Origin: Rhodoglobus sp.
Lineage (GTDB): Bacteria > Actinomycetota > Actinomycetes > Actinomycetales > Microbacteriaceae
Reading direction: 5' to 3'
DNA: 64,000 bases
NCBI GenBank assembly: GCA_051646885.1
Contig: JBOFDJ010000074.1
Span: 6,756 to 70,755, forward strand
Of the stretch, positions 9,135-60,547 are shown piece after piece. The translations under genes were made by a program, and so were the position numbers. The notes below the pieces were generated by a model. That model ran no database searches. It saw nothing but the letters and a program-made list of their open reading frames with translations, and was not told where the DNA came from. Position 1 is the first letter of the stretch, and each line of letters begins with the position of its first letter.

Positions 9135-10243
9135 TTAGGGCTCTCCAGCGCCGCAGCAACAGTATCGAGCAATTCATTCCAGGAACCAATAAATTTCTCA
9201 ACACCCTCCTTTTCGAGCAGTGTTGTCACCTCGTCGTAAGAAATTCCTAAAGAATCGAGTTCGTCGAGTGTCGTATTTGCGTCGGCGTAGCGATCTGTTA
9301 CCTGATCGCCCGTGATCACGCCGTGGTTGAAGGTTGCTTCCAGCGTCTTTTCTGGCATGGTGTTGACTGTGTCATTGACGGCAAGCTCTGTGACATAGAG
9401 AGTGTCGGGAAGATCGGGATCTTTGACACCGGTTGATGCCCATAAGGGGCGCTGTTTATTTGCGCCGGCAGCCAACAGAACTTTGGCTCGCTCAGAGTCG
9501 AAAGACTGTTCATATACTTGATAGGCAAGTCGCGCGTTGGCAACTCCCGCCTTACTTTTGAGCCCTGTGGCTGTGTCGGTACCGATTGCGGCAAGTCGCT
9601 TATCGATCTCAGTATCAACACGCGACACGAAGAATGATGCGACTGAGTGGATACTGGATAGATCATGGCCGAATGCTTTCGCCTGCTCAAGGCCGGTGAG
9701 ATATGCATTGATCACCTCACGGTGACGCGACAAACTAAAAATTAGTGTGACATTGACGCTGATTCCTGCAGCGATCGTCGCCGTGATGGCCTCAAGCCCT
9801 TCCACGGTTGCCGGAATTTTGATCATCGCGTTTGGTCGGTTGACTTGTGACCACAGTTCCTGCGCCTGCTGGATCGTGCCTGCGGTGTCGTGAGCCAGCC
9901 CAGGCTCAACCTCGATTGAGACGCGACCATCTTGCCCGCCAGTCGTGTCGTAGACGGGGCGGAAAATGTCGCAGGCCGCGGCCACATCGCGGGTGGTGAT
10001 CTCGAACACCGCCTCGGTGACGGAGGACCCGGTTGAAGCCAGTTCTTTAATCTGCGCGTCGTAGGCTTCGCCCTTGGCTAAAGCGCTGGCGAAGATCGTT
10101 GGATTGGTTGTAACACCGACGACGTTACGTTCAGCTATCAGCTTTTCTAGCCCACCCGAGGTGATCCGTTCGCGGGATAAATCATCGAGCCAGATGCTGA
10201 CCCCTAATCCCGATAGTGCTTCAGTCGGAGTTTCTCTGCTCAT
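9131..10243 (-). CDS. tal: Transaldolase
   Basis: [41 protein letters not shown]. Confidence 0.98.
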
Positions 10244-10269
10244 GATGCTCTTTTCTTTCTTTCCCGAGC

Positions 10270-12363
10270 CTAAACGGCTGCAAGCGATTCTTTAGCGGCG
10301 ATGACGGCGGCCTCGGCAGTGATGCCAAACTCTCGAAACAGAGTCTTGTAGTCAGCAGAGGCACCGAAATGTTCGATGGAGATGCTGCGGCCGGCATCTC
10401 CGACGTATTCGCGCCACGTTAGGGCGAGACCCGCTTCGATGGAAACCCGTGCTGTGATCGCGGCAGGTAATACTGACTCGCGGTATGCAGCATCCTGCTC
10501 ATCAAACCATTCGAGGCACGGTGCCGACACGACCCGGGCGTTGATCCCTTCACTCGTGAGGATTTCGCGGGCGGCAATGGCGATCTGAACCTCAGAGCCG
10601 GTAGCGATGAAGATAACATCGGGCGATCCGTTGGGAGCTTCCGCGAGTACATAAGCCCCCTTGGCTACGTGGTGGGCCGAGGCGAATACGTCACCGTTCG
10701 CAAGGTCATCACCTCGCTCGAAAACAGGAACATTTTGTCGCGTCAGAGCAATTCCCGCAGGACCCTCCCGGCGTTCGAGGATCGTTTTCCACGCCCACGC
10801 AGTTTCGTTTGCATCACTAGGCCTCACGATGTCAAGACCAGGGATTGCCCGCAAAGTAGAGAGCTGTTCGATCGGTTGGTGTGTTGGGCCATCTTCGCCC
10901 AGCGCCACTGAGTCGTGGGTCCAGACAAAGACTGACGGCGATTTCATGAGTGCGGCGAGGCGCACTGCGGGACGCATGTAGTCACTAAAAATTAGAAAAG
11001 TGCCACCGTAAGGACGAGTGTTGCCGTGCAACACAATGCCATTAAGGATGGCGGCCATCGCGTGCTCACGGATGCCAAAGTGCAAAGTTCGTCCGTAAGG
11101 ATTACCCGTCCACTCATGGGTAGAATGCTCGCTCGGAATAAACGACGGCGCGCCTTCGATCGTGGTGTTATTGGATTCTGCAAGGTCGGCTGAGCCGCCC
11201 CACAACTCAGGAATGACAGCGCCGAGTGCGCCTAACACCTTTCCGCTGGCAGCACGGGTTGACAGTTCTTTTCCTGCTTCGAAAACCGGCAGGGCTTCGA
11301 CAACGCCCTCAGGAAGCTCTCCTGAGGTGATTCGGTCGAGCAAGACCTTTTTCGAGGGATTGGCTTGCGCCCACGTCCCGAAAGAGACATTCCACTCAGC
11401 ACGGGCTTCTGCTCCACGATCAACAGCCTTACGCGTGTGGTTGATGGTCTTAGCCGACACTTCGAATGTCTTCTGCGGATCGAATCCTAGAAGCTCCTTA
11501 ACTCCCGCAAGTTCTTCTGCGCCAAGGGCGGAGCCGTGTATCTTGCCCGTGTTTTGTTTTTTGGGGCTCGGCCAGCCAATGATGGTGTTGAGGATAATCA
11601 GGCTGGGCCTATCGGTTACATCCTGCGCAGCCGAAATAGCTGCATAAAGTTCAACAACGTCTTCGTTGTAGGTGCCGTTCTTTTTCCAGTCGACAACTTG
11701 CACATGCCAGTGGTAAGACTCGTAACGCATCTTCACATCTTCTGTGAAGGCGATGTTGGTGTCGTCCTCAATCGATATCTGGTTTGAGTCGTAGATCGCA
11801 ATCAGATTTCCCAATTGCTGATGCCCGGCAAGGGATGATGCCTCGCTGGAGACGCCTTCCTGGAGGTCACCGTCGCCGGCAATGACGTAAACGAAGTGAT
11901 CAAAGGGACTAGTGCCGATTTCAGCATCTGGGTCAAACAAACCGCGCTCATATCGTGATGCATAGGCAAAACCCACCGCCGAGGCGATGCCCTGGCCAAG
12001 GGGTCCGGTGGTAATTTCGACACCATCAGTATGTCCGTACTCAGGGTGTCCCGGGGTTTTTGAGCCCCAAGTGCGTAGCGCCTTAAGGTCGTCCAGTTCC
12101 AGACCGTAACCGCCAAGATAAAGCTGCACATATTGGGTGAGAGAGCTGTGCCCAGCCGAGAGAATGAATCTGTCACGTCCAATCCACGTCGCATCTCGAG
12201 GGTCATGACGCATCACCTTCTGAAACAACAAATACGCCACGGGTGCCAGACTCATTGCTGTGCCCGGATGCCCATTTCCTACCTTCTCTACTGCATCTGC
12301 AGCGAGAATTTTGGCGGTATCTACTGCCCTAATGTCATGGGGATCCCATTGGAGAGTTGCCAC
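10270..12363 (-). CDS. tkt: Transketolase
   Basis: [38 protein letters not shown]; start set at GTG 12363 behind a GAAGGG RBS (the ORF track extends further upstream). Confidence 0.98.
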
Positions 12364-32866: not shown

Positions 32867-34327
32867 TCACAAGCGGTCTGCACGCCTCGTGATCCACAGT
32901 GGCACGATCACGTCTCGGGTGAGGGAGTCAAGTTCAATGCCTGCGGGATCTTCGTTATCAATCCACGTTAGTTCTTCGATTTCTTCTGTGGCGGAGAAAT
33001 TTTGATCGCAGATCAGCGCGAATACTTCGGCTCTGGTTACTGTCTCGGCCTCGTGGCTAGCGTCTGAACGGAAGCTGCCGAGATATTCAGTAACCCCGAG
33101 GTCAAGTTCAAGGCCAAGCTCTGTAAAGAGTTCACGCGAAAGGGCATCCACTGCGCTTTCCCCACGCTCGATCTTGGCGCTCGGCTGCAGAAAAATTGAA
33201 CTGCCGCGGTGACGTACGAGCAGGGCTCGGCCTGCTGAATCTGTAATAATCGCGGCGGCAAGCCTCACAGTAGTTGGTCGCAGCGCAGTGCGAGTAGCCG
33301 AAACCTCTTCGGTAACAACGCTGGGGGAGTCCACTGCAGCAGAAGTGATGTCGTCCGTGGGATCACGAGACAAATCTGCCGTACCTGAATCACCATCATC
33401 AAGTGCCACAGCTTCGTGTGACAGAACTTCTTCGGACGAATTCCCTTGACCGGTTTCAGATTTTTTGGGGATCTCAGTATCGGAGATAGCGGTGTCAGCG
33501 GAGGCTGCGGTTGCTGCGGGGACAGGTTCCTCGAGTGTGAGAACACCTGTGCTGAAATCGAGGTGTGGCACGGTTCGACTGGGGCGGGGGCTTGGAGCCT
33601 GAATAGGCTGTGTGTCAAGGATGCTCGCGAGATGATTACTGACGCGCATGGGCCATGAGGTGTCTGCTACAAAATCCTGATCGCCTTTAGTCCGACGAAT
33701 GTAATCAGCAAAACTTGCAGCCTGTTCCGCATACCAGATGCTCTGGAGGTCATGAAGCTCGACTACATCGACACTGAGCTCTTGAGGGAAGGCGGCAGCC
33801 AGTCCTTGCGCGAGGCGACCAGCAGCAATCGCATCAGCACCGGCATCATGGGCCTCGGCGAGTGGGATTTTGTAGCGCGCGGCAGTAGCCTCAAGGGTTC
33901 GTTTACCTTTGCGATATTTGTCGACATGTTTATCGAGTACGAGCGGGTCGATAATGGGCTTGGGCATGTTCAGCGATGTGAGCTGGTGACGTCGACACTC
34001 TCGGTCGAGAAGCGTCAGATCGTAGGGGGAGTTGTACACGACCAGTGGAACACCGAGGGCAAAAATCACGCGCAGGCTTTGCGTGATTTCACCCACAACA
34101 GTCTGAGCATCACGGCCGTGAGCGTGAGCGTGTTCTGTTGTGATTCCATGAACAGCAGCAGCCGAAGCAGGGATTTCGATCCCTGGGTTTGCGAGCCAAT
34201 CCCAGCGGGTGATGACTGAACCATCCGCATCGAGTATGGCAACGCAGGCTGACACGATTCGGGCAGTATCGACCTCGACACCGGTGGTCTCGAGGTCGAA
34301 AACGCCAATGCGGCCCCAATTATTCAT
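32867..34327 (-). CDS. DEDDh 3'-5' exonuclease fused to a C-terminal NUDIX-like domain
   Basis: FDLETTG, YNSPYD, AHDAGAD; acidic linker; then AAAIITD.GRALLVR...PSAKIERGES...RELFTELG. Confidence 0.85.
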   Translation of the reverse strand: MNNWGRIGVFDLETTGVEVDTARIVSACVAILDADGSVITRWDWLANPGIEIPASAAAVHGITTEHAHAHGRDAQTVVGEITQSLRVIFALGVPLVVYNSPYDLTLLDRECRRHQLTSLNMPKPIIDPLVLDKHVDKYRKGKRTLEATAARYKIPLAEAHDAGADAIAAGRLAQGLAAAFPQELSVDVVELHDLQSIWYAEQAASFADYIRRTKGDQDFVADTSWPMRVSNHLASILDTQPIQAPSPRPSRTVPHLDFSTGVLTLEEPVPAATAASADTAISDTEIPKKSETGQGNSSEEVLSHEAVALDDGDSGTADLSRDPTDDITSAAVDSPSVVTEEVSATRTALRPTTVRLAAAIITDSAGRALLVRHRGSSIFLQPSAKIERGESAVDALSRELFTELGLELDLGVTEYLGSFRSDASHEAETVTRAEVFALICDQNFSATEEIEELTWIDNEDPAGIELDSLTRDVIVPLWITRRADRL

Positions 34328-36974: not shown

Positions 36975-37859
36975 TTAGCTACTGAGACGGTGTAACAAGG
37001 TAACCAAGGTCTCCGAGGTTCCGGCATCGATCTTGACTGACGCTCGGCTATCACCTTTCGTGACCCCGCGATTGATAATCACGATCGGCAGACGGCGACG
37101 GCGTGCTTGCTCAAGCAATCGGACCCCCGAGTTGACCGCAAGCGAAGAGCCTGCGACGAGAAAGGCCTCGCCAGAAGCCACTAAGGCGGAGGCTTCCTCG
37201 AATTTTTCTTGAGGTAAGTACTCTCCGAAGAAAACCACATCTGGCTTGAGTACGCCGCTACAGACAGTGCACCTGGGCATAACAAAGGCGGTGATGTCAT
37301 TCCCCCCGACATCGCCGTCGGGGCCCAGTTCGCCGATGATGTCATGATCAATCCAAGGATTATGGCTCGTGATGTGATCAGCAATGCTGCTACGCGAGTA
37401 ATACTGCCCGCAGTCTAGGCAGCAAACTCGATCCATGCTGCCGTGCAGGTCAACGACTCGTTGTGAGCCAGCTTTTTGGTGCAGACCATCGACGTTCTGG
37501 GTGATGATTCCGTTGACGGCTCCACGGCGTTCAAGCTCGACCAGAGCTACATGTCCGTTGTTGGGAACGGCGGCGGAGAACCGTTTCCAACCGAAGTGGC
37601 TTCCAGCCCAGTATCTCTTTTGATACTCAAAATCGGAGAGAAAATGCTGGAACGTCATGGGCGAGCGAGCAGGGGCACCAGCTCCGCGGTAATCAGGGAT
37701 ACCAGAATCGGTGCTTACCCCGGCACCGGTCAGAACAACAATGCTCTTCCCTGTGAGGATGCTGATTGCGGTATCCAGTGTTTCGTCAGCTGAGCTCGCC
37801 TGTGTGGCAGATGACCGGCGAGACGAGTGACCGGGGGAGGTCGCGCCAAGTTGTGCCAC
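36975..37859 (-). CDS. cobB: NAD-dependent deacylase, Sir2 family
   Basis: GAGVSTDSGIPDYRG, TQNVDGLH, LHG, CLDC/CTVC zinc site, KPDVVFFGE; GTG start behind AAAGGAGG. Confidence 0.92.
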   Translation of the reverse strand: MAQLGATSPGHSSRRSSATQASSADETLDTAISILTGKSIVVLTGAGVSTDSGIPDYRGAGAPARSPMTFQHFLSDFEYQKRYWAGSHFGWKRFSAAVPNNGHVALVELERRGAVNGIITQNVDGLHQKAGSQRVVDLHGSMDRVCCLDCGQYYSRSSIADHITSHNPWIDHDIIGELGPDGDVGGNDITAFVMPRCTVCSGVLKPDVVFFGEYLPQEKFEEASALVASGEAFLVAGSSLAVNSGVRLLEQARRRRLPIVIINRGVTKGDSRASVKIDAGTSETLVTLLHRLSS

Positions 37860-37958
37860 GGTACCCCTCCTTTCACTGCTCAATAAGACTAAATGCAGAG
37901 GATCGTATATGGTGCTGTTTGCTGTCGGCGTGCATCAACTGTTGCAGCGCAACTCTGA

Positions 37959-41320: not shown

Positions 41321-42568
41321 ATGGGCAAACAGGATGGGCGGGATCGCCAGATCACGGTCGGTGCTATCGATGATAGTCACGCCACCATCCTTCATGTGGA
41401 TATGGACGCGTTCTTCGCCTCAGTCGAACTTTTAGATCACCCAGAATTGATCGGTAAACCGGTAATCGTTGCCCATAGATCCGCTAGATCTATTGTGACT
41501 GCAGCTACCTACGAAGCGCGCAGGTTCGGCGTCAACTCGGCCTTGCCCATGGCAATAGCTCTGCGGCGCTGCCCTCAAGCTATTGTGCTGGAGCCGCATT
41601 TTGATCGTTACCAGCATTTTTCGGCACAGGTTATGGCGATTTTGGAGGGCATCACACCGAAGCTTGAACAATTCGGAATAGATGAAGCGTTCCTTGATGT
41701 CGCGGGTGCGGGACAGGTATTGGGGTCACCCCTTGCTATCGCAAAGGTGATTCGACATCGCGTTCGCAGTGAAACAGGGCTGGTGTGTTCGATCGGGGCA
41801 GCATCCACCAAATTCTTGGCAAAGCTAGCGTCGGGCCTGTCGAAACCTGATGGTCTGCTCGTTGTTCCACCTCAGGAAAGTATTGCGTTCCTGCATCCGT
41901 TGCCCATTGCGAAACTCTGGGGTGTCGGACCAAAAACGGAGGAACTGCTTCGGGCTCGTGGCTACCATACGGTAGGTGACCTCGCAGTTGTTTCGCTGGT
42001 CGATCTGCAACGTGTTGTGGGAGTTGCCGCTGCACAGCGTCTGCATGATCTTGCGTGGGGTGTCGATCCTCGACCGGTTCAGGCGCGTGCAGAGGAGAAA
42101 AGTATCGGTCATGAGATCACTTTCGAGGCCGATGTGACCGAACCACAGATCATTCGCCGTGAATTGCTGCGAATGTCGAATATGGTTGCGGGCCGACTAC
42201 GCCGGGCCCGTTTTGTTGCACGAACCATAGTTCTCAAGCTGCGTTTCTCCGACTTCACCACCATCACCCGATCACGGACCCTCGCAGAATCCACTGATCT
42301 TGCTCGGACGATCTACCAGGAGGTCGTGAACATTTACGATACGGTAGGCCATCGGGATGCCGCGATCAGGCTGGTAGGGGTCCGCACCGAACAGTTGCAG
42401 GACTCAGCCACGGTTCAGCGTGGATTGTGGGATGAGTCAGAAGGATGGCGGGAGATCGAAGATGCCATCGATGCCGTGGGTGCACGTTTTGGTCGAGATG
42501 CGGTGAAACAGGCACGACTCATCGGTCACGCTGTTCACGAAAGGCCACGGCTGGGGCAACGTGACTGA
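41321..42568 (+). CDS. dinB: DNA polymerase IV
   Basis: HVDMDAFFASVE, YEARRFG, GIDEAFLD, KLASGLSKPDG. Confidence 0.96.
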   Translation: MGKQDGRDRQITVGAIDDSHATILHVDMDAFFASVELLDHPELIGKPVIVAHRSARSIVTAATYEARRFGVNSALPMAIALRRCPQAIVLEPHFDRYQHFSAQVMAILEGITPKLEQFGIDEAFLDVAGAGQVLGSPLAIAKVIRHRVRSETGLVCSIGAASTKFLAKLASGLSKPDGLLVVPPQESIAFLHPLPIAKLWGVGPKTEELLRARGYHTVGDLAVVSLVDLQRVVGVAAAQRLHDLAWGVDPRPVQARAEEKSIGHEITFEADVTEPQIIRRELLRMSNMVAGRLRRARFVARTIVLKLRFSDFTTITRSRTLAESTDLARTIYQEVVNIYDTVGHRDAAIRLVGVRTEQLQDSATVQRGLWDESEGWREIEDAIDAVGARFGRDAVKQARLIGHAVHERPRLGQRD

Positions 42569-42626
42569 GGCTTCTGGTTGATCGAACTGCGGATTACTGT
42601 CGGCAGCAGAAGATAGTATTTTTCCA

Positions 42627-44411
42627 GTGAGTAGTTCGTCATCAAGCGCCGGGTTTTTTAGCCCGAACATTGGAACTTTTGCTGCTGAACATCTTTCACC
42701 TTCTTATCCTGAGCGTGCCGCTAGAGGGACCGCGCAGAAGTTGCGGGCCTGGCAGGCAGAGGCCCTTGATGCCTATTTTCAGCACGAGCCGCGAGATTTT
42801 CTTACCGCTGCAACTCCTGGTGCAGGAAAAACGACTTTTGCTCTGCGGCTTGCTGTGGAGCTCATTGCCCGCCGGGCCGTTGAGCGGGTTACTGTCGTGA
42901 CCCCGACTGATCATCTCAAACGACAGTGGGCCGATGCAGCGCATCGAGTCGGCTTGCGCCTCGATCCAGACTATTCCAACGGTGACGCCTACGGCGGGCG
43001 ACGGTTCCATGGAATTGCCATTACCTATGCACAACTTGCGGTGCGCGCATCCCTTCACCAAGAGATCACTGAATCATCTCGCACGCTGGTTATCCTCGAC
43101 GAGGTACACCACGGTGGTGACGCGCTGAGCTGGGGAGATGCTATTAGGGTGGCATTCGAGAACGCAACCCGGCGGCTCTCACTGACGGGCACTCCTTTTC
43201 GCAGTGATACAGCACCGATCCCCTTCGTGCAGTATGCGCCGGATGATGCGGGAATCCGGACATCTGTTACCGATTACTCCTATGGATACGGTCGTGCGCT
43301 TGCCGATGGCGTTGTGCGACCGGTGATCTTCATGGCATACGCCGGAAAAATGCGCTGGCGCACCACCATGGGTGACGAAATGGAGGCACGGCTTGGCCAA
43401 GATGATACGAAGGATGTTACCGCCCAAGCGTGGCGCACAGCGTTAGACCCAAGTGGGGAGTGGATGCAGTCCGTCCTGCAGTCGGCTGACCGTCGCTTGA
43501 GCGAGGTTCGACACTCGATTCCGGATGCTGGTGGTCTCGTTATCGCGACAGATCAAGAGGCTGCACGCGCCTACGTTAAACTGCTCCACCAGATTACGGG
43601 AGAGTCCCCGATGGTGGTCCTGTCGGACGAGAAAGAGTCCTCTTCACGGATCGAGACTTTCGCGCAAGGACAGCAGCGCTGGATGGTGGCGGTGCGGATG
43701 GTCTCGGAAGGTGTTGATATTCCGCGTCTCGCTGTCGGCGTGTATGCGACTTCTGCTGCTACCCCCCTCTATTTCGCCCAAGCGGTTGGACGCTTCGTGC
43801 GTGCACGGCGTCGCGGGGAAACGGCATCCATTTTTCTGCCCAGCGTGCCGACGCTCATGACTCTTGCGCGCTTGCTTGAACTGGAGCGTAATCACGCGTT
43901 AGATCGGAGGTCCGAACATAATGGACTTCTTGACGATGATTCTTTGACCCAAGAGAATCGCACCGAAACAGCCTCCGATACGTTGGCACAGGAGTTTATG
44001 TGGGAGGCCATCGACTCCGATGCGAACTTCGACAGGGTGCTATTCGACGGAGATGAATTTGGCTTCGCTGCCGCAACAGGTAGTGATGAAGAACTGGATT
44101 TTATTGGGCTTCCGGGTGTTCTCGAACCCGAGCAGGTGCGCGAACTGCTTCGGCAGCGTCAATCGCGTCAATCGCGTCGAACTGCCGGAAAGCCGAAGAA
44201 CGAGCAGCCGCGCGCACTGTTCCGTGATCTCAAAGAGCAGCGTAGTCTGTTGAATTCTTTGGTAGGGATGCGCGCAAAAATGTCCCACGAGCCGCACGGA
44301 GTGATCCATGCCGAACTTCGCCGCATCTGTGGTGGGCCGGCTGTCGCGCAGGCTACGGTAACTCAGCTGCAGGCCCGGATCGATTATCTACGCCGAGGGA
44401 TTCGTTCCTAG
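42627..44411 (+). CDS. SF2 DEAD/DEAH-box helicase (conserved actinobacterial type)
   Basis: ATPGAGKT, DEVHH, LTGTP, MVSEGVDIP, QAVGRFVR. Confidence 0.9.
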   Translation: MSSSSSSAGFFSPNIGTFAAEHLSPSYPERAARGTAQKLRAWQAEALDAYFQHEPRDFLTAATPGAGKTTFALRLAVELIARRAVERVTVVTPTDHLKRQWADAAHRVGLRLDPDYSNGDAYGGRRFHGIAITYAQLAVRASLHQEITESSRTLVILDEVHHGGDALSWGDAIRVAFENATRRLSLTGTPFRSDTAPIPFVQYAPDDAGIRTSVTDYSYGYGRALADGVVRPVIFMAYAGKMRWRTTMGDEMEARLGQDDTKDVTAQAWRTALDPSGEWMQSVLQSADRRLSEVRHSIPDAGGLVIATDQEAARAYVKLLHQITGESPMVVLSDEKESSSRIETFAQGQQRWMVAVRMVSEGVDIPRLAVGVYATSAATPLYFAQAVGRFVRARRRGETASIFLPSVPTLMTLARLLELERNHALDRRSEHNGLLDDDSLTQENRTETASDTLAQEFMWEAIDSDANFDRVLFDGDEFGFAAATGSDEELDFIGLPGVLEPEQVRELLRQRQSRQSRRTAGKPKNEQPRALFRDLKEQRSLLNSLVGMRAKMSHEPHGVIHAELRRICGGPAVAQATVTQLQARIDYLRRGIRS

Positions 44412-48984: not shown

Positions 48985-49135
48985 CGCGTTCCTCACTGTA
49001 GTGAATGGCTAGTTTTCTGAAAAACAATGGCGCACTTATCTCTAGTGTAAGGAGCAGTGCTAGGCAAGCCGCAGTAGAAAATACTGCGACTTGCGATATT
49101 GTGTGAGCAGTTGGGATAGCAACGGGGGATTTGGC

Positions 49136-50491
49136 ATGTTGATCGAGCCGGGGAATTGGCCCAGTGGGCTGCTGCGTCGCTACACGCCCTTAGTGCTTAT
49201 CGCCCATGGGGGGATGGCAAGCGTGTATCGGGCTCGTGATAATTTTCTGGGCCGGGATGTTGCGATTAAGATTTTTCGAGCTAGCGCAACTACCGAGGTT
49301 GAATTTCGCAAACAAGAAGTTGAAGTAAACCTCTTAGCTCGACTAAATCATCCCAACCTGGTGACTTTATTGGATGCTGCTGTTGATCGTGGAAACCCGG
49401 AAAAGACTCAAATCTACTACGTCATGGAGCTTGTCGAAGGTACCGACTTGAAACGTCGCCTCGACGATGGTCCTCTTTGCGGGCGTCAGGTGGCGCAGAT
49501 CGGTTATTCGATTGCCACTGCTCTCGAACATGTACACGGCCTGAAGATCGTTCATCGAGATGTTAAACCCGCCAATATTTTGATTACCATGAGTTCAGAT
49601 GGTGTGACACTCAAGGCCACACTGGGCGATTTCGGTATCGCCTCACTGGGTAATGCGAAAGCGATCACGGATGATGAAGTAGTCAGCGGCACTGTCGCCT
49701 ATTTCAGTCCCGAGCAGGCAATGGGTGACGAGGTGGGGGCGGCAAGTGACGTTTACTCTTTGGGCCTTGTGTTGTTACAGTGCCTTACTGCGGAGCTAGC
49801 ATTCCCCGGTCCTGCTGAGTACTCAGCACTAGCGAGATTATTCGATGATCCGGTGATTCCTCAGAGTGTTCCGGCTGACTGGCATCAGCTCCTGAGGGCA
49901 ATGACCGCACGGCGCGCTGTTGATCGTCCTGACATCCACGATGTAGCGGTGGCACTAGATCAACTTGCTTTCAGGGAATCTGGTCGTCATAGATCGACCT
50001 TAAAGTCCAACTCTTCGGAGCTGACCGAACTGGTTCCCGACGGGGCTTTCGATAAAATTACTGCCCTCGCATCACGGGTTCTAGCGATGCCGATCGCGCT
50101 CATTAGCGTTCTTGGCCATGATCGGATCTGGTTCACCGCGCGACAAGACATAGATATGAATCGCATTGCCATCGATGCCGGTCGCTATGCCGGTGCATTA
50201 CTCCAGCCATGGCCCTGGGTTATTGAGGATGCGCTGCTCGACTCGCGCGCAGCCGATAACCCGCTACTGCCTGGTGATAACATCTTCAGATCTTACGTCG
50301 GGGTTCCCTTAGTGCGAGGGGATGGCATCGTGACCGGTACCCTGTGCCTACTATCACCTGAACCCCGCCGGATCACAGTAGATGACCTCGCGACCCTCAA
50401 GGATCTTGCAGCCATGGCGATGCGAGAACTTGAGCTACGTGTCGACATACCTGAGTTGACCTCCGGGGCTTTTCATAGCTCTCTTCGTTAG
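49136..50491 (+). CDS. Hanks-type Ser/Thr protein kinase with C-terminal GAF domain
   Basis: GGMASVY, VAIK, HRDVKPAN, DFG, GTVAYFSPE; GAF pattern FD.IT.LA...PIALIS...NP...YVGVPL...GTLCL. Confidence 0.88.
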   Translation: MLIEPGNWPSGLLRRYTPLVLIAHGGMASVYRARDNFLGRDVAIKIFRASATTEVEFRKQEVEVNLLARLNHPNLVTLLDAAVDRGNPEKTQIYYVMELVEGTDLKRRLDDGPLCGRQVAQIGYSIATALEHVHGLKIVHRDVKPANILITMSSDGVTLKATLGDFGIASLGNAKAITDDEVVSGTVAYFSPEQAMGDEVGAASDVYSLGLVLLQCLTAELAFPGPAEYSALARLFDDPVIPQSVPADWHQLLRAMTARRAVDRPDIHDVAVALDQLAFRESGRHRSTLKSNSSELTELVPDGAFDKITALASRVLAMPIALISVLGHDRIWFTARQDIDMNRIAIDAGRYAGALLQPWPWVIEDALLDSRAADNPLLPGDNIFRSYVGVPLVRGDGIVTGTLCLLSPEPRRITVDDLATLKDLAAMAMRELELRVDIPELTSGAFHSSLR

Positions 50492-50584
50492 TTTTCTTTC
50501 TGTTGACATCAGTAATGGTCGACCACCGGGTCGTAATAGACGTAGCGTTAGTCGGGATACCAATCATGTCTCGAGAGGACTGCT

Positions 50585-51304
50585 GTGCCGGAGTGTATCC
50601 ATGGACTTGAAATTCCAGTATGCGATAGCTGTTTTCCCCAAGCCGTTCCTCAGCGACCGGTTCTCGCGCGTTCGAGCTCACGCTCCCGAGTCAGTGCCCC
50701 AACGCCGGTCTCCCGAAAGTCTTATAACTCCGGGGCTCAACGGATCTATCACGTCACGCATATCAATAATCTGGAACCGATCCTGGCGCGAGGAGCTCTT
50801 ATCGCCGAGGCGGTTCCCGTTGTTGATCTGAGTACCGAACTGACTCGAGAGCTTCGTCGTTCAGCCCAGGTTACTGCGGAGGGCTCGATGGTCAGCGAGT
50901 ATGTCGCTTTCTCTCTCAGCCCCCACGCTACTTTTTGGGAGCGACTGCGAACCGGGGCTCACGACGAGACACGGTGGTCGTCGGCTGCCCGGTCAGCGGC
51001 ATCCGTCGACTTCGTGTTTCTCGTGAGCACGGTGGGAATTCTGGGTTCTGACGCTGTGATCGCAGATGGCGATGCCGCCCACAGCCTTACACGTTTCGCG
51101 AGGGGGGAATCCGCGACCAGAATGCTCGAACAGCTGTATAGCAGCGATCAACTCCAGGAAGCCGAGGTTCTCTGCCCAACCTCCGTTCCCTTCGGGTCTG
51201 TGCAGCTCATTGGGGTGGCTAATAATCTGGTCCGAGATCGCGTCAAGAAACTCACAACGACGAAGGTGGTGGTCTATCCTCCATGGTTTCAGATAACCGA
51301 GTAG
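50585..51304 (+). CDS. DarT-like (DUF4433) ADP-ribosyltransferase family protein with N-terminal Cys/His motif
   Basis: IYHVTHINNL..IL..G.L, EYVAF, FLVST, DGDAA, catalytic-position AEVL, IGV, C-terminal PPWF align with DarT motifs. Confidence 0.8.
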   Translation: MPECIHGLEIPVCDSCFPQAVPQRPVLARSSSRSRVSAPTPVSRKSYNSGAQRIYHVTHINNLEPILARGALIAEAVPVVDLSTELTRELRRSAQVTAEGSMVSEYVAFSLSPHATFWERLRTGAHDETRWSSAARSAASVDFVFLVSTVGILGSDAVIADGDAAHSLTRFARGESATRMLEQLYSSDQLQEAEVLCPTSVPFGSVQLIGVANNLVRDRVKKLTTTKVVVYPPWFQITE

Positions 51305-52599
51305 ATGATACCTCTGCGGTGCGCTTGCGAAATAAGGGACTGCACCTTGACCTTGTTGATACTCAGGAACTCACGGAGTTCGCAGCGTGGTTGAGAGCGG
51401 ATAGACGCGGCTTTCATCTTGCTGAGCCCGATGAGCAGAGAGTCAAGGATACTCATGCAGGTATCGGTGATCGGCGCACGACCGGTGTCTGGGATAGCCG
51501 CATACCTGAACCGTCGATTCCGATTGCGACCGTCAGCTCCTGGAAGACAGAGATGACGGTTCCTGGGCACCGCACCGTGCCAGCATGGGCCATCAGTTCA
51601 GTGACAGTGGCCCCGACTCATCGGCGCCAAGGAATCGCTAGGGCGTTGCTGGAAGCAGAACTGCGGACCGCTTCTAGCAAGGGGGTACCCATGGCGATAT
51701 TGACTGTGTCGGAGTCGACGATCTACGGAAGATTCGGTTTTGCGCCTGCCGCCTACGCCAGCACTCTGACGATCAACACTCGCCGCGCGAAATGGGTCGG
51801 GCCTGAGGCATCCGGTCGCGTCAGTTTCATGACAACCGCGCAGTTCCGTAGTAACGTCGCTGCAGTTCACGAGCGGGTCAGACCTACCAACCCAGGAGAG
51901 ATTCCTGTTGGGGATTTCGAGTGGGATCAGATCGCCGGTATCGTGACTGAAGATAAAAACCATGCGCTCTCTTTGCGTGCGGTGCGTTATGACACTGCGG
52001 CTGGTGAGCTTCAGGGGTTGGCCCTTTATCGGGTGAAGGAACAAAGTCAAGACTTTGCGGAACAGACGCTGACGGTCGAATACTTGGTGACGGAAACAGC
52101 TGAGGCCTACGCAGCACTGTGGCAATATCTGCTCGACATTGATCTTGTGGCTCAGGTTAAAGGTGTGCATCGTTCGGTAGACGAGCCCCTGTTATGGCAG
52201 CTCAGCGACCGTCGAGGCGTGACTGAGAAGGTTTGGGATCATCTGTGGTTACGTATTCTTGATGTCACAACAGCACTGGAGGGACGAACCTACTCGGCTG
52301 CTGGCGACTGTATCCTTCAGGTGCATGACGACTTGAGTTTCGCGGCAGGCAACTATGTTCTGAGAGTTGATCACAACGGCGCAGCTCGTGTTGCGGCGAT
52401 CACTACCCGGGCTGCTGAGAATGCCGTAGCTTCTGTTTCTTTGGGCGTTCGTGAACTGTCAGCGCTCTATCTCGGGGGTGTTTCCGCAGCGACTCTTGCC
52501 GCTGCAGGGCTCATCATTGAACAGCATCCTGGATCACTGAACGCTCTCGATTCGATGTTCCGATCAGCCTGCGCCCCTTGGCTTTCGTTTTGGTTCTAG
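51283..52599 (+). CDS. Eis-like GNAT acetyltransferase with SCP-like C-terminus
   Basis: VTVAPTHRRQGIA, SESTIYGRFGF, HLWLRILDV..AL..R.Y, LSALYLGG, C-terminal FW. Confidence 0.88.
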   Translation: MVSDNRVDDTSAVRLRNKGLHLDLVDTQELTEFAAWLRADRRGFHLAEPDEQRVKDTHAGIGDRRTTGVWDSRIPEPSIPIATVSSWKTEMTVPGHRTVPAWAISSVTVAPTHRRQGIARALLEAELRTASSKGVPMAILTVSESTIYGRFGFAPAAYASTLTINTRRAKWVGPEASGRVSFMTTAQFRSNVAAVHERVRPTNPGEIPVGDFEWDQIAGIVTEDKNHALSLRAVRYDTAAGELQGLALYRVKEQSQDFAEQTLTVEYLVTETAEAYAALWQYLLDIDLVAQVKGVHRSVDEPLLWQLSDRRGVTEKVWDHLWLRILDVTTALEGRTYSAAGDCILQVHDDLSFAAGNYVLRVDHNGAARVAAITTRAAENAVASVSLGVRELSALYLGGVSAATLAAAGLIIEQHPGSLNALDSMFRSACAPWLSFWF

Positions 52600-60462: not shown

Positions 60463-60547
60463 TGCGCGAAGGGGGACTTGAACCCCCACGCCCTATACGG
60501 GCACTAGCACCTCAAGCTAGCGCGTCTGCCATTTCCGCCATCCGCGC
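60463..60547 (-). tRNA. tRNA-Leu (anticodon GAG)
   Basis: Acceptor stem GCGCGGA/TTCGCGC, anticodon loop TTGAGGT, long variable arm, GGTTCAAGTCC T-arm; CCA not encoded. Confidence 0.97.

Follow-up and report, generated by a model that had tools for sequence, protein, structure and literature searches.

A DarT2-like lineage with a putative zinc knuckle and no linked antitoxin in the chromosomes of Microbacteriaceae

DarT enzymes are extremely toxic modifiers of DNA that are tolerated only beside a dedicated hydrolase, and in Mycobacterium tuberculosis DarG is essential because of DarT. DarT1 and DarT2 are the only recognised branches that searches of the literature returned (e.g. PMC12945103), and DarT is the bacterial ADP-ribosyltransferase (ART) closest to the PARPs (PMC5179494). 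We describe here a DarT-like gene at positions 50585-51304 of a 64,000-nucleotide stretch of DNA from Rhodoglobus sp., family Microbacteriaceae (NCBI GenBank assembly GCA_051646885.1, contig JBOFDJ010000074.1, positions 6,756 to 70,755 of the forward strand), the whole of which is referred to below as the window. The gene represents a lineage, designated ZK-DarT, that is fixed in the chromosomes of hundreds of species, evolves under purifying selection and has no hydrolase gene linked to it. Such a lineage, with a remodelled acceptor site and a putative metal-binding tail, is unexpected, since DarTs are known as enzymes tolerated only in the company of their antidote. The same searches gave no account of a chromosomal DarT lineage that bears a knuckle or lacks DarG.

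The coding sequence and its catalytic domain are placed as follows.

50585-51304, + strand: coding sequence of the DarT-like ADP-ribosyltransferase with a putative zinc knuckle; 239 aa, GTG start and TAG stop, from the list of open reading frames (ORFs)
50741-51301, + strand: DarT (DUF4433) ADP-ribosyltransferase domain, residues 53-239, by Pfam and Foldseek

A Shine-Dalgarno sequence, GAGAGGA, lies 5 nt 5' of the GTG. Membership of the product in the DarT family had been proposed in a preliminary description, drawn from the bases alone, on the order of its motifs, all of which are present in the ORF (RIYHVTHINNLEPIL, RELRRSAQV, EYVAFSLSPHATFW, FVFLVST, DGDAA, EAEVL, LIGVAN and PPWF), and the proposal is borne out by profile hidden Markov models and by structural comparison. 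Pfam PF14487 (DarT/DUF4433) matches residues 55-230 over profile positions 1-195 of 201, with 58.1 bits against a gathering score of 22.5 (E=1.3e-15), and the PADLOC model for DarT matches at E=2.6e-18. An AlphaFold2 (AF2) model built from 25 homologues has a predicted local distance difference test (pLDDT) score of 82.9, with blocks of 88-97 in the domain; when this predicted, rather than experimental, structure was compared with the PDB by Foldseek, the top matches were all DarT structures, the best at about 1e-14. They comprise Thermus DarT2 (7omy, E=6.7e-15, template modelling (TM) score 0.75), M. tuberculosis DarT (7yk3, E=1.3e-14, TM 0.69), a Thermosipho DarTG fusion (7omu, E=5.7e-11) and, much more weakly, Escherichia coli DarT1 (8baq, E=7.6e-6, TM 0.55). 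A profile of the lineage likewise matched the M. tuberculosis and Thermus DarTs in the PDB (7.3e-14 and 6.6e-13, respectively) and gave no match to DarT1 at E<=1. On the other hand, the protein scores only 50.2 bits against the NCBIfam equivalog NF048013 (toxin_DarT), for which the cut-off is 150 bits, and it is therefore a divergent member of the DarT family, not an orthologue of the characterised toxins.

The nature of this divergence is best seen at the active site, for which the relevant codons are the following.

50750-50752, + strand: codon of H56, the ART His (Thermus H13); invariant in the lineage and conserved in DarT2
50855-50857, + strand: codon of R91, the catalytic Arg (Arg51 in DarT2, Arg52 in DarT1); R in 20 of 20 lineage members and in 119 of 121 DarT2
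50912-50938, + strand: codons of S110-W118 (SLSPHATFW), with S110 at the Tyr71 position and F117 at the Met78 position
51071-51073, + strand: codon of D163, within DGDAA, at the base-locking position; D in 20 of 20 lineage members
51164-51166, + strand: codon of E194, the catalytic Glu (Thermus E160, E. coli DarT1 E152); invariant in the lineage and conserved in DarT2

Residues were mapped by aligning the profile of the lineage to PDB chains including 7omv and 7yk3, and columns were counted in 20 lineage members and 121 DarT2 sequences; the roles of residues in canonical DarT active sites (Schuller et al. 2021) are taken as summarised in PMC9967889 and PMC11543638. The protein in the window keeps every catalytic residue of the lineage, among them the Glu already remarked upon (E194, aligned with Thermus E160), and 20-25 sampled orthologues, at 37-68 % identity, show no variation at the His, Arg, Asp and Glu positions. 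Other positions depart from DarT2. The Tyr71 position, to which polarisation of NAD+ and stacking on nicotinamide are ascribed, is Y in 121 of 121 DarT2, Ser110 in the window protein and mixed in the lineage (Y in 9, F in 5, S in 4 and Q in 1). At the Met78 position, ascribed to oxocarbenium stabilisation, M occurs in 120 of the 121 DarT2 sequences, and Phe117 is found here within a column that varies across the lineage (L, R, A, V or F); this is the substitution that had been read as SPHATFW in place of PRSPML. The residue that follows is W118, a Trp in 20 of 20 lineage members as against Leu in 121 of 121 DarT2. The base-locking position, Asp throughout the lineage, is Asn in 116 of 121 DarT2, His119 in Thermus and Asn104 in DarT1. 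The segment from DGDAA to the catalytic Glu, which holds the ADP-ribosylating toxin turn-turn (ARTT) substrate loop and had been described as shortened, measures 28-30 residues versus 39 in Thermus and 42 in M. tuberculosis, a difference of 10-13 residues, and a conserved block ('FVDFDLLCQ') is deleted from it. The lineage carries, in addition, a specific RWSxAAR insertion and a VYPPWF C-terminus. Retention of the His, Arg and Glu, combined with changes at Tyr71, Met78, the base-lock and the ARTT segment, indicates that the core for NAD+ binding and transfer is preserved, and that the acceptor side and two catalysis-enhancing residues have been remodelled.

A second departure, overlooked in the preliminary description, lies ahead of the domain.

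50585-50644, + strand: putative zinc knuckle, residues 1-20 (MPECIHGLEIPVCDSCFPQA); C4, H6, C13 and C16 invariant in the alignment
50645-50740, + strand: basic low-complexity linker, about residues 21-52, predicted to be disordered (pLDDT <50 for residues 17-43)

The knuckle follows the motif C-x-H-x6-C-x2-C, within a consensus start of M-x-E-C-I-H-G-[LF]-x3-[LQ]-C-D-x-C-[FY]-P-K for the lineage. The linker, put at about 44 residues and a net charge of about +8 for the protein, spans 38-70 aa across the lineage and there has a net charge of +4 to +10, with a median of +8, and the first strand of the DarT fold begins at residue 54-87 in the lineage versus about residue 12 in Thermus. The knuckle region is constrained (median omega 0.20) and, in 1.6 Mb of Microbacteriaceae DNA, is confined to DarT-like genes. 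When 1.84 billion representative proteins were searched exhaustively by HMMER with a knuckle profile of 20 columns, 45 were returned at E<=1e-3, all of this lineage, a result that led us to reject the notion that the knuckle is a widespread mobile module; no Pfam family matched it at E<=1. By analogy, the N-terminal module may be viewed as a putative CHCC zinc knuckle with a tail that would bind nucleic acid.

The lineage is both widespread and phylogenetically restricted. A collection of 5.8 billion proteins yielded 485 homologues, the best 120 of which are 49-70 % identical to the protein in the window and include, as named sources, Salinibacterium, Rhodoglobus and Schumannella. In a survey of one genome per GTDB species, relatives were carried by 329 species genomes, and the best 80 of these are all Microbacteriaceae bar a few obviously mislabelled metagenome-assembled genomes (MAGs); the genera among these 80 include Salinibacterium, Rhodoglobus, Leifsonia, Lacisediminihabitans, Pseudolysinimonas, Lysinimonas, Cryobacterium, Frigoribacterium, Glaciihabitans, Planctomonas, Marisediminicola and Schumannella. 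Placed in a tree alongside Thermus DarT2 and 120 DarT2 sequences from actinobacteria, the lineage is monophyletic and set on a long branch. Median identity is 47 % within the lineage, 22 % (maximum 30 %) to actinobacterial DarT2 and 27 % to Thermus DarT2, and the distance separating the lineage from M. tuberculosis-type DarT2 equals that between the latter and Thermus DarT2. The ratio of nonsynonymous to synonymous substitution rates (dN/dS), taken from pairs with dS <0.45, is 0.01-0.22 for the 25 least-diverged ortholog pairs (dS 0.14-0.44); an overall median of 0.54 was set aside, saturation of dS in GC-rich genomes making it an artefact. No relatives were found by tblastn in 72,556 plasmids or 50,697 phage records, and a mobile origin was rejected on that result. 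The GC content of the gene (57.5 %) is like that of its surroundings (54.8 % for the window), and flanking genes are syntenic across genera. The low dN/dS, the lack of plasmid or phage copies, the matching GC content and the synteny together imply that this is an ordinary, vertically inherited chromosomal gene and not part of an island. As regards domestication, these data (329 species, synteny, dN/dS and the blank plasmid and phage searches) agree with the earlier suggestion of a domesticated ART with a different substrate or built-in control better than with a defence island. Its remaining part, a changed substrate or control, is made plausible by the loss of Met, the short ARTT segment, the invariant Asp, Ser110, and the knuckle and linker, with activity and substrate being what we infer.

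The absence of a linked antitoxin was assessed over the 64 kb of this genome and, in other genomes, over 10 kb to either side of the orthologous genes. Of the remaining ORFs in the window, the 57 that reach 90 aa were searched for Pfam domains, and none carries a Macro, NADAR, ADP-ribosylglycohydrolase, integrase or transposase domain or one recognised as belonging to defence; ORFs below 90 aa were screened with a DarG profile only. That profile was built from three canonical controls retrieved with the M. tuberculosis DarT (from Amycolatopsis, Nocardioides and Nocardiopsis), each of which (3/3) has a Macro-domain DarG of 355-359 aa placed 10-15 nt downstream of darT. It recovers these three DarGs at about 1e-206 and, over all frames of the window and of 82 orthologous loci, which together make up about 1.5 Mb, yields no match at E<=10. 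No SCO6735-type macrodomain was found in the window or in the flanks of the orthologous loci, and the 10-kb flanks of the 82 orthologues are likewise free of macrodomain, NADAR, ARH, integrase and defence genes. The window was said at the outset to contain no macrodomain or NADAR gene and to present a housekeeping neighbourhood devoid of integrase and defence genes; both statements stand, and the survey of the 82 loci adds that none has a DarG and that synteny is common to the genera. The term 'orphan', also used then, is accurate as a statement about linkage, over the distances just given.

The best explanation of these findings, to which we would assign an even chance, is that ZK-DarT is an undescribed, vertically inherited DarT2-like lineage which has been domesticated, retargeted and probably attenuated, and which is antitoxin-free at its locus. 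The knuckle and basic tail would hold the enzyme on a polyanionic partner, most likely nucleic acid, while the ART domain would bind NAD+ via His56 and Arg91, and Glu194 would serve ADP-ribose transfer. The TNTC thymidine modified by canonical DarT2 is probably not the acceptor, because Asp occupies the base-lock invariantly, the ARTT loop is short by 10-13 residues and a lineage-specific RWSxAAR insertion is present. The lack of conservation at Tyr71 and Met78 suggests that turnover is probably attenuated, and the loss of these two residues may be the reason that the enzyme is tolerated without a dedicated antidote. Attenuation would let the gene persist on the chromosome under its own promoter with no dedicated antitoxin as neighbour, in a role that would be regulatory or housekeeping rather than one in toxin-antitoxin function or phage defence. 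A more ambitious version, which we regard as unlikely, portrays ZK-DarT as an antitoxin-independent, domesticated ART of nucleic acid that has a new acceptor specificity fixed by the Asp base-lock and the short ARTT loop, is recruited to or activated on DNA or RNA through its zinc knuckle and basic tail in the manner of a PARP, and is the missing endogenous writer for the DarG/TARG1-like macrodomains or NADARs of actinobacteria. If that were true, the writer and the stand-alone macrodomains or NADARs would form a physiological system of reversible nucleic-acid ADP-ribosylation signalling, as opposed to a toxin-antitoxin or defence system.

The main rival, rather unlikely in our estimation, is a split toxin-eraser pair, in which a conventional toxic DarT is continuously reversed by an unlinked ADP-ribosylhydrolase (an SCO6735/TARG1-type macrodomain, a NADAR or an ARH), in effect a DarTG divided between loci. 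It draws strength from the intact and invariant catalytic His, Arg and Glu, from the identity of the closest structures (thymidine-specific DarT2 enzymes), and from the extent of the DNA considered, which amounts to 64 kb here and 10 kb to either side elsewhere; SCO6735-type macrodomains, moreover, are widespread in Actinobacteria with no known writer (PMC9411070). However, with the essential Met78 and the invariant Tyr71 not conserved, and the base-lock and ARTT segment altered, ordinary thymidine chemistry becomes doubtful, and the three actinobacterial DarT2 controls all keep DarG immediately downstream. The gene also lies outside any defence or mobile context, and no split arrangement of this kind was found described in the literature searched.

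Several points weigh against the explanation of a tamed and retargeted enzyme. The knuckle and linker are modelled at low confidence (AF2 pLDDT <50 for residues 1-43), and the binding of zinc or nucleic acid by them is an analogy. Mutation to Ala of M71, the equivalent of Met78 in DarT1, abolishes activity and toxicity (PMC11543638); loss of this Met alone being sufficient there, ZK-DarT could be inactive and not merely attenuated. An unlinked hydrolase elsewhere in the genome may be compatible with data that concern linkage. As to expression, none of the public sequencing runs holds the locus. There are, in addition, reduced forms of the protein, which the preliminary description did not record. 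Among 45 representative clusters that bear the knuckle, 23 are full-length with all catalytic motifs, 6 are full-length with a degenerate motif (YHxTH, for example, is lost in P0263 and P0266), 7 are truncated or frameshifted, and 9 are complete 'mini' proteins of 134-161 aa (P0245, P0247, P0251, P0264, P0271, P0273, P0274, P0278 and P0283). The minis retain the knuckle and linker, the first strand-helix and, at the C-terminus, the IGVAN...VRDRV...VYPPWF module, and are devoid of RELR, DGDAA and the catalytic Glu. One of them, P0245, occupies an orthologous position in two independent assemblies (L086:3783-4268 and L087:3920-4405), in the order LysR (-), DUF5997 (+), mini (+), with its start overlapping the DUF5997 stop by 4 nt. 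Catalysis has thus been lost, and the scaffold retained, in part of the lineage. The minis and the loss of YHxTH argue that catalysis is dispensable there, and the constant function of the lineage may be a non-catalytic one.

Carried to its conclusion, this line of argument would make ZK-DarT a pseudo-enzyme, that is, a factor binding nucleic acid, NAD+ or ADP-ribose whose function resides in the knuckle, the tail and the IGVAN...VYPPWF module, with little or no transfer. The nine minis, the occasional disappearance of YHxTH and the lack of conservation of the canonical Met and Tyr all speak for such a factor, which we nevertheless consider quite unlikely: the window protein keeps the His, Arg, Asp and Glu, as do 23 of the 29 representative clusters that are full-length, and the invariance of these residues among the sampled orthologues is hard to explain without either catalysis or NAD+ binding.

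When the nine minis were used as tblastn queries, only full-length genes were matched in the window and in all loci, and no mini lies beside a full-length copy; on this result, a mini paralogue serving as decoy or antitoxin next to the full-length gene was rejected for these genomes. In one MAG, a knuckle-less DarT paralogue of 218 aa (L051:15506-16162, - strand; Pfam DarT, 63.7 bits; motifs YHLTH and PRSSAL) is found 5 kb from the ZK-DarT gene. It is followed on the same strand by an ORF of 215 aa with no Pfam match and is flanked by a divergent MazG-like gene, and may represent another DarT variant with an unrecognised partner.

The gene adjacent to the DarT-like gene on its downstream side is the following.

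51283-52599, + strand: Eis-type GNAT acetyltransferase (Acetyltransf_9 + Acetyltransf_17 + SCP2_2, 438 aa), by Pfam; a candidate functional partner

Its ATG falls in the region of the W234 codon of the DarT-like gene, creating an overlap of 22 nt (not recorded in the preliminary description), and this start is backed by conservation of the N-terminus. A GNAT gene is adjacent (<500 nt) in 36 of 82 loci, being in tandem downstream in 21, in tandem upstream in 3, divergent in 4 and convergent in 8; in a further 9 of the 82 it is 2.7-5.5 kb away. No GNAT gene occurs within 10 kb in 21 or more loci for which at least 9 kb of sequence is available on both sides, among them all cultured Frigoribacterium and Cryobacterium. 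Persistence of this adjacency through several rearrangements hints at a functional link, though not an obligatory one. The GNAT could be the true partner, either as an acetylating antidote that acts on the transferase or on its target, or as one of two enzymes working in sequence on one substrate. The overlap, the outlasting of rearrangements in four arrangements, and an order of toxin first and partner second, like that of darT-darG, lend this idea some appeal. We think it improbable all the same, in view of the loci with full flanks from which the GNAT is absent, of the convergent and divergent arrangements that preclude co-transcription, and of literature searches that gave no precedent for a GNAT as antidote of an ART. 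Eis-type GNATs are common, housekeeping-like genes in actinobacteria, and the linkage may for that reason be residual synteny.

Eis enzymes acetylate aminoglycosides, and an ABC ATPase and permease follow the GNAT in the window with 13-nt and overlapping junctions, so that a small-molecule ART with a logic like that of Arr, the rifampicin ADP-ribosyltransferase, within a xenobiotic- or antibiotic-modifying cluster might be imagined, its remodelled acceptor site fitted to a new substrate; this is very improbable, since the putative zinc knuckle and the +8 basic tail point to a polyanionic partner, the GNAT/ABC linkage is not conserved across the lineage, and the fold is closest to DNA-modifying DarT2, not to Arr.

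The gene on the other side is placed as follows.

49091-50491, + strand: Ser/Thr protein kinase with a C-terminal GAF domain, the gene immediately upstream, by Pfam

A gene of cluster 2 is found directly upstream in 25 of 74 loci. The corresponding gene encodes SGNH-GAF or SGNH proteins in Salinibacterium and Rhodoglobus (L019-L030) and, in the closest MAG (L001), SGNH without GAF. The C-terminal GAF domain appears as the constant part and the N-terminal domain as the one that is swapped, with a kinase here and, in Salinibacterium and Rhodoglobus, an SGNH/GDSL hydrolase. In Frigoribacterium (L067-L077, gene at about 9992-10831), the DarT-like gene lies between fusA-tuf and rpsJ-rplC-rplD, directly preceded by a type IB topoisomerase gene (Top1B_N_bact + Topoisom_I), and neither GNAT nor DUF5997 occurs within 10 kb. 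The upstream gene was rejected as a partner on the grounds of this lack of conservation (kinase-GAF, SGNH, SGNH-GAF or topoisomerase IB). DUF5997, a small protein, has its gene upstream and in the same orientation in 43 of 83 loci, between 8 nt and about 10 kb away, and the window and 40 loci lack it; on account of the variable distance and these absences, its candidacy as an antitoxin-like partner was set aside, the association being judged one of synteny and not obligate. No neighbour is universal, and none is an ADP-ribose hydrolase. In Lacisediminihabitans changchengi the same locus, with identical distances and neighbours, is present on two scaffolds (L076 and L081), representing recent duplication or redundancy of the assembly.

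Two elements precede the DarT-like gene.

50519-50548, + strand: promoter-like element TCGACC-N18-TAGCGT, of putative function, in the 93-nt gap after the upstream gene
50565-50580, + strand: conserved leader CATGTCTCGAGAGGAC, with the palindrome TCTCGAGA and the Shine-Dalgarno sequence GAGAGGA; all 16 bases shared by the 7 closest loci

The arrangement TCGACC-N18-TA[G/C]CGT is present in the 6 closest orthologous loci, and GTA[GC]C[GCT]T occurs within 120 nt upstream in 37 of 78 loci; a scan for consensus sigma-70 promoters did not flag the element. The 7 closest loci, identical in the leader, encode proteins that are about 67 % identical. The palindrome TCTCGAGA is perfect and overlaps the Shine-Dalgarno sequence, and the leader region holds an out-of-frame ATG that would open an upstream ORF of 14 codons. 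No Rfam family matches the leader at the gathering threshold, and the 80 nt upstream are conserved to about the same degree as the coding sequence (74-76 % vs 69-72 %), a level that fits a promoter and ribosome-binding site better than a known RNA element or riboswitch, which was accordingly rejected. Regulation by the SOS response or DNA damage was also rejected: a search for LexA boxes (TCGAAC-N4-GTTCGA, <=2 mismatches) and RecA-NDp promoters in the 250 nt upstream of 78 orthologues gave 2 weak matches.

The remainder of the window conforms to its housekeeping character. It includes gap-pgk-tpi, a pgl-opcA-zwf-pgi-tal-tkt block, ctaA/B, sufBDC and biotin synthesis, together with ABC transporters, glgC, glycosyltransferases, an exonuclease-NUDIX fusion, a Sir2 protein, DinB, a ResIII/DEAD helicase, an amine oxidase, RNase H, DUF2207, glutathione peroxidase, DnaJ, an EEP nuclease, an M20 peptidase, BacA and a gene resembling class-I Cys-type tRNA synthetases. 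A tRNA gene at 60463-60547 (-) is the sole Rfam match in the window at the gathering threshold. Two of the genes relate to NAD+ or ADP-ribose, namely those for the Sir2-family protein (302 aa; 36975-37883, -) and the RNase T-type exonuclease-NUDIX fusion (486 aa; 32867-34327, -); in the other genomes, over the sequence examined, neither accompanies the DarT-like gene. Genes for DNA-damage tolerance are found within 5-9 kb of the DarT-like gene, namely DinB and the ResIII/DEAD helicase in the window (41321-44411, +) and an imuA'-imuB-dnaE2 mutasome cassette in a Salinibacterium-like MAG (L001:1-4834) and in Rhodoglobus vestalii (L002:1-5884). Because no SOS box lies upstream of the DarT-like gene, this proximity may be coincidental synteny.

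From a broader perspective, the lineage offers a natural experiment in the taming and retargeting of a toxin fold. It could reveal a new specificity of ADP-ribosylation for nucleobases or other macromolecules, with possible use as a tool for modifying DNA or RNA, and could supply an endogenous writer for the orphan macrodomains of actinobacteria; the minis, in turn, could expose a non-catalytic function of the scaffold. For annotation, matches to 'DarT' models of the PADLOC or Pfam type in Microbacteriaceae are not to be read as a DarTG defence system.

Set beside the known systems, ZK-DarT stands nearest to the DarT2 of DarTG2, as represented by the DarT of Thermus sp. 2.9 or T. aquaticus (PDB 7OMV-7ON0) and by that of M. 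tuberculosis (Rv0059, 7YK3). It shares with these PF14487, the fold and the motif order, conserves the ART His, the Arg (R51) and the Glu (E160), and has 'ELR' and 'DG-x-AA' motifs like those of the M. tuberculosis enzyme. It differs in being 22-27 % identical to them, in an N-terminal extension of 54-87 residues that carries the CHCC knuckle and basic linker, and in the absence of the downstream DarG that the DarT2 controls have at 10-15 nt. In place of the mobile, defence-island or restriction-modification (R-M) setting and patchy distribution expected of a DarTG system, its gene is chromosomal, syntenic and set among housekeeping genes. The DarT1 of DarTG1 (E. coli C7, PDB 8BAQ), a guanine-specific enzyme with a NADAR antitoxin, has a similar ART fold and similar essential Arg and Glu, and in both proteins the Tyr of the H-Y-E triad is replaced by Ser, at S63 of DarT1 and S110 of the window protein (PMC11543638). 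However, DarT1 keeps its essential Met (M71) and uses Asn104 and Asp54, and the window has no NADAR gene.

More distant parallels can also be drawn. PARP1-type enzymes combine an N-terminal metal-binding module that senses nucleic acid with an ART of the H-Y-E class, a likeness that is one of analogy only: the ZK knuckle amounts to one CHCC motif, about 16 residues long, for which no homology to PARP zinc fingers can be detected, the WGR and helical regulatory domains are lacking, and allosteric activation of ZK-DarT by DNA would be pure speculation. The SCO6735-type (ALC1/TARG1-like) macrodomains provide a mirror image. These stand-alone proteins reverse thymidine-ADP-ribose and are widespread in Actinobacteria with no linked or known writer (PMC9411070), so that an eraser without a writer is seen in the one case and a writer without a linked eraser in the other; SCO6735 has a RecA-NDp promoter, of which, as of a LexA box, only the 2 weak matches among 78 loci were seen upstream of ZK-DarT. 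Since ZK-DarT lacks three active-site features and the linkage that defines DarTG, it should not be filed as a DarTG toxin, even though it very probably works by the same NAD+-dependent chemistry as the known DarTs.

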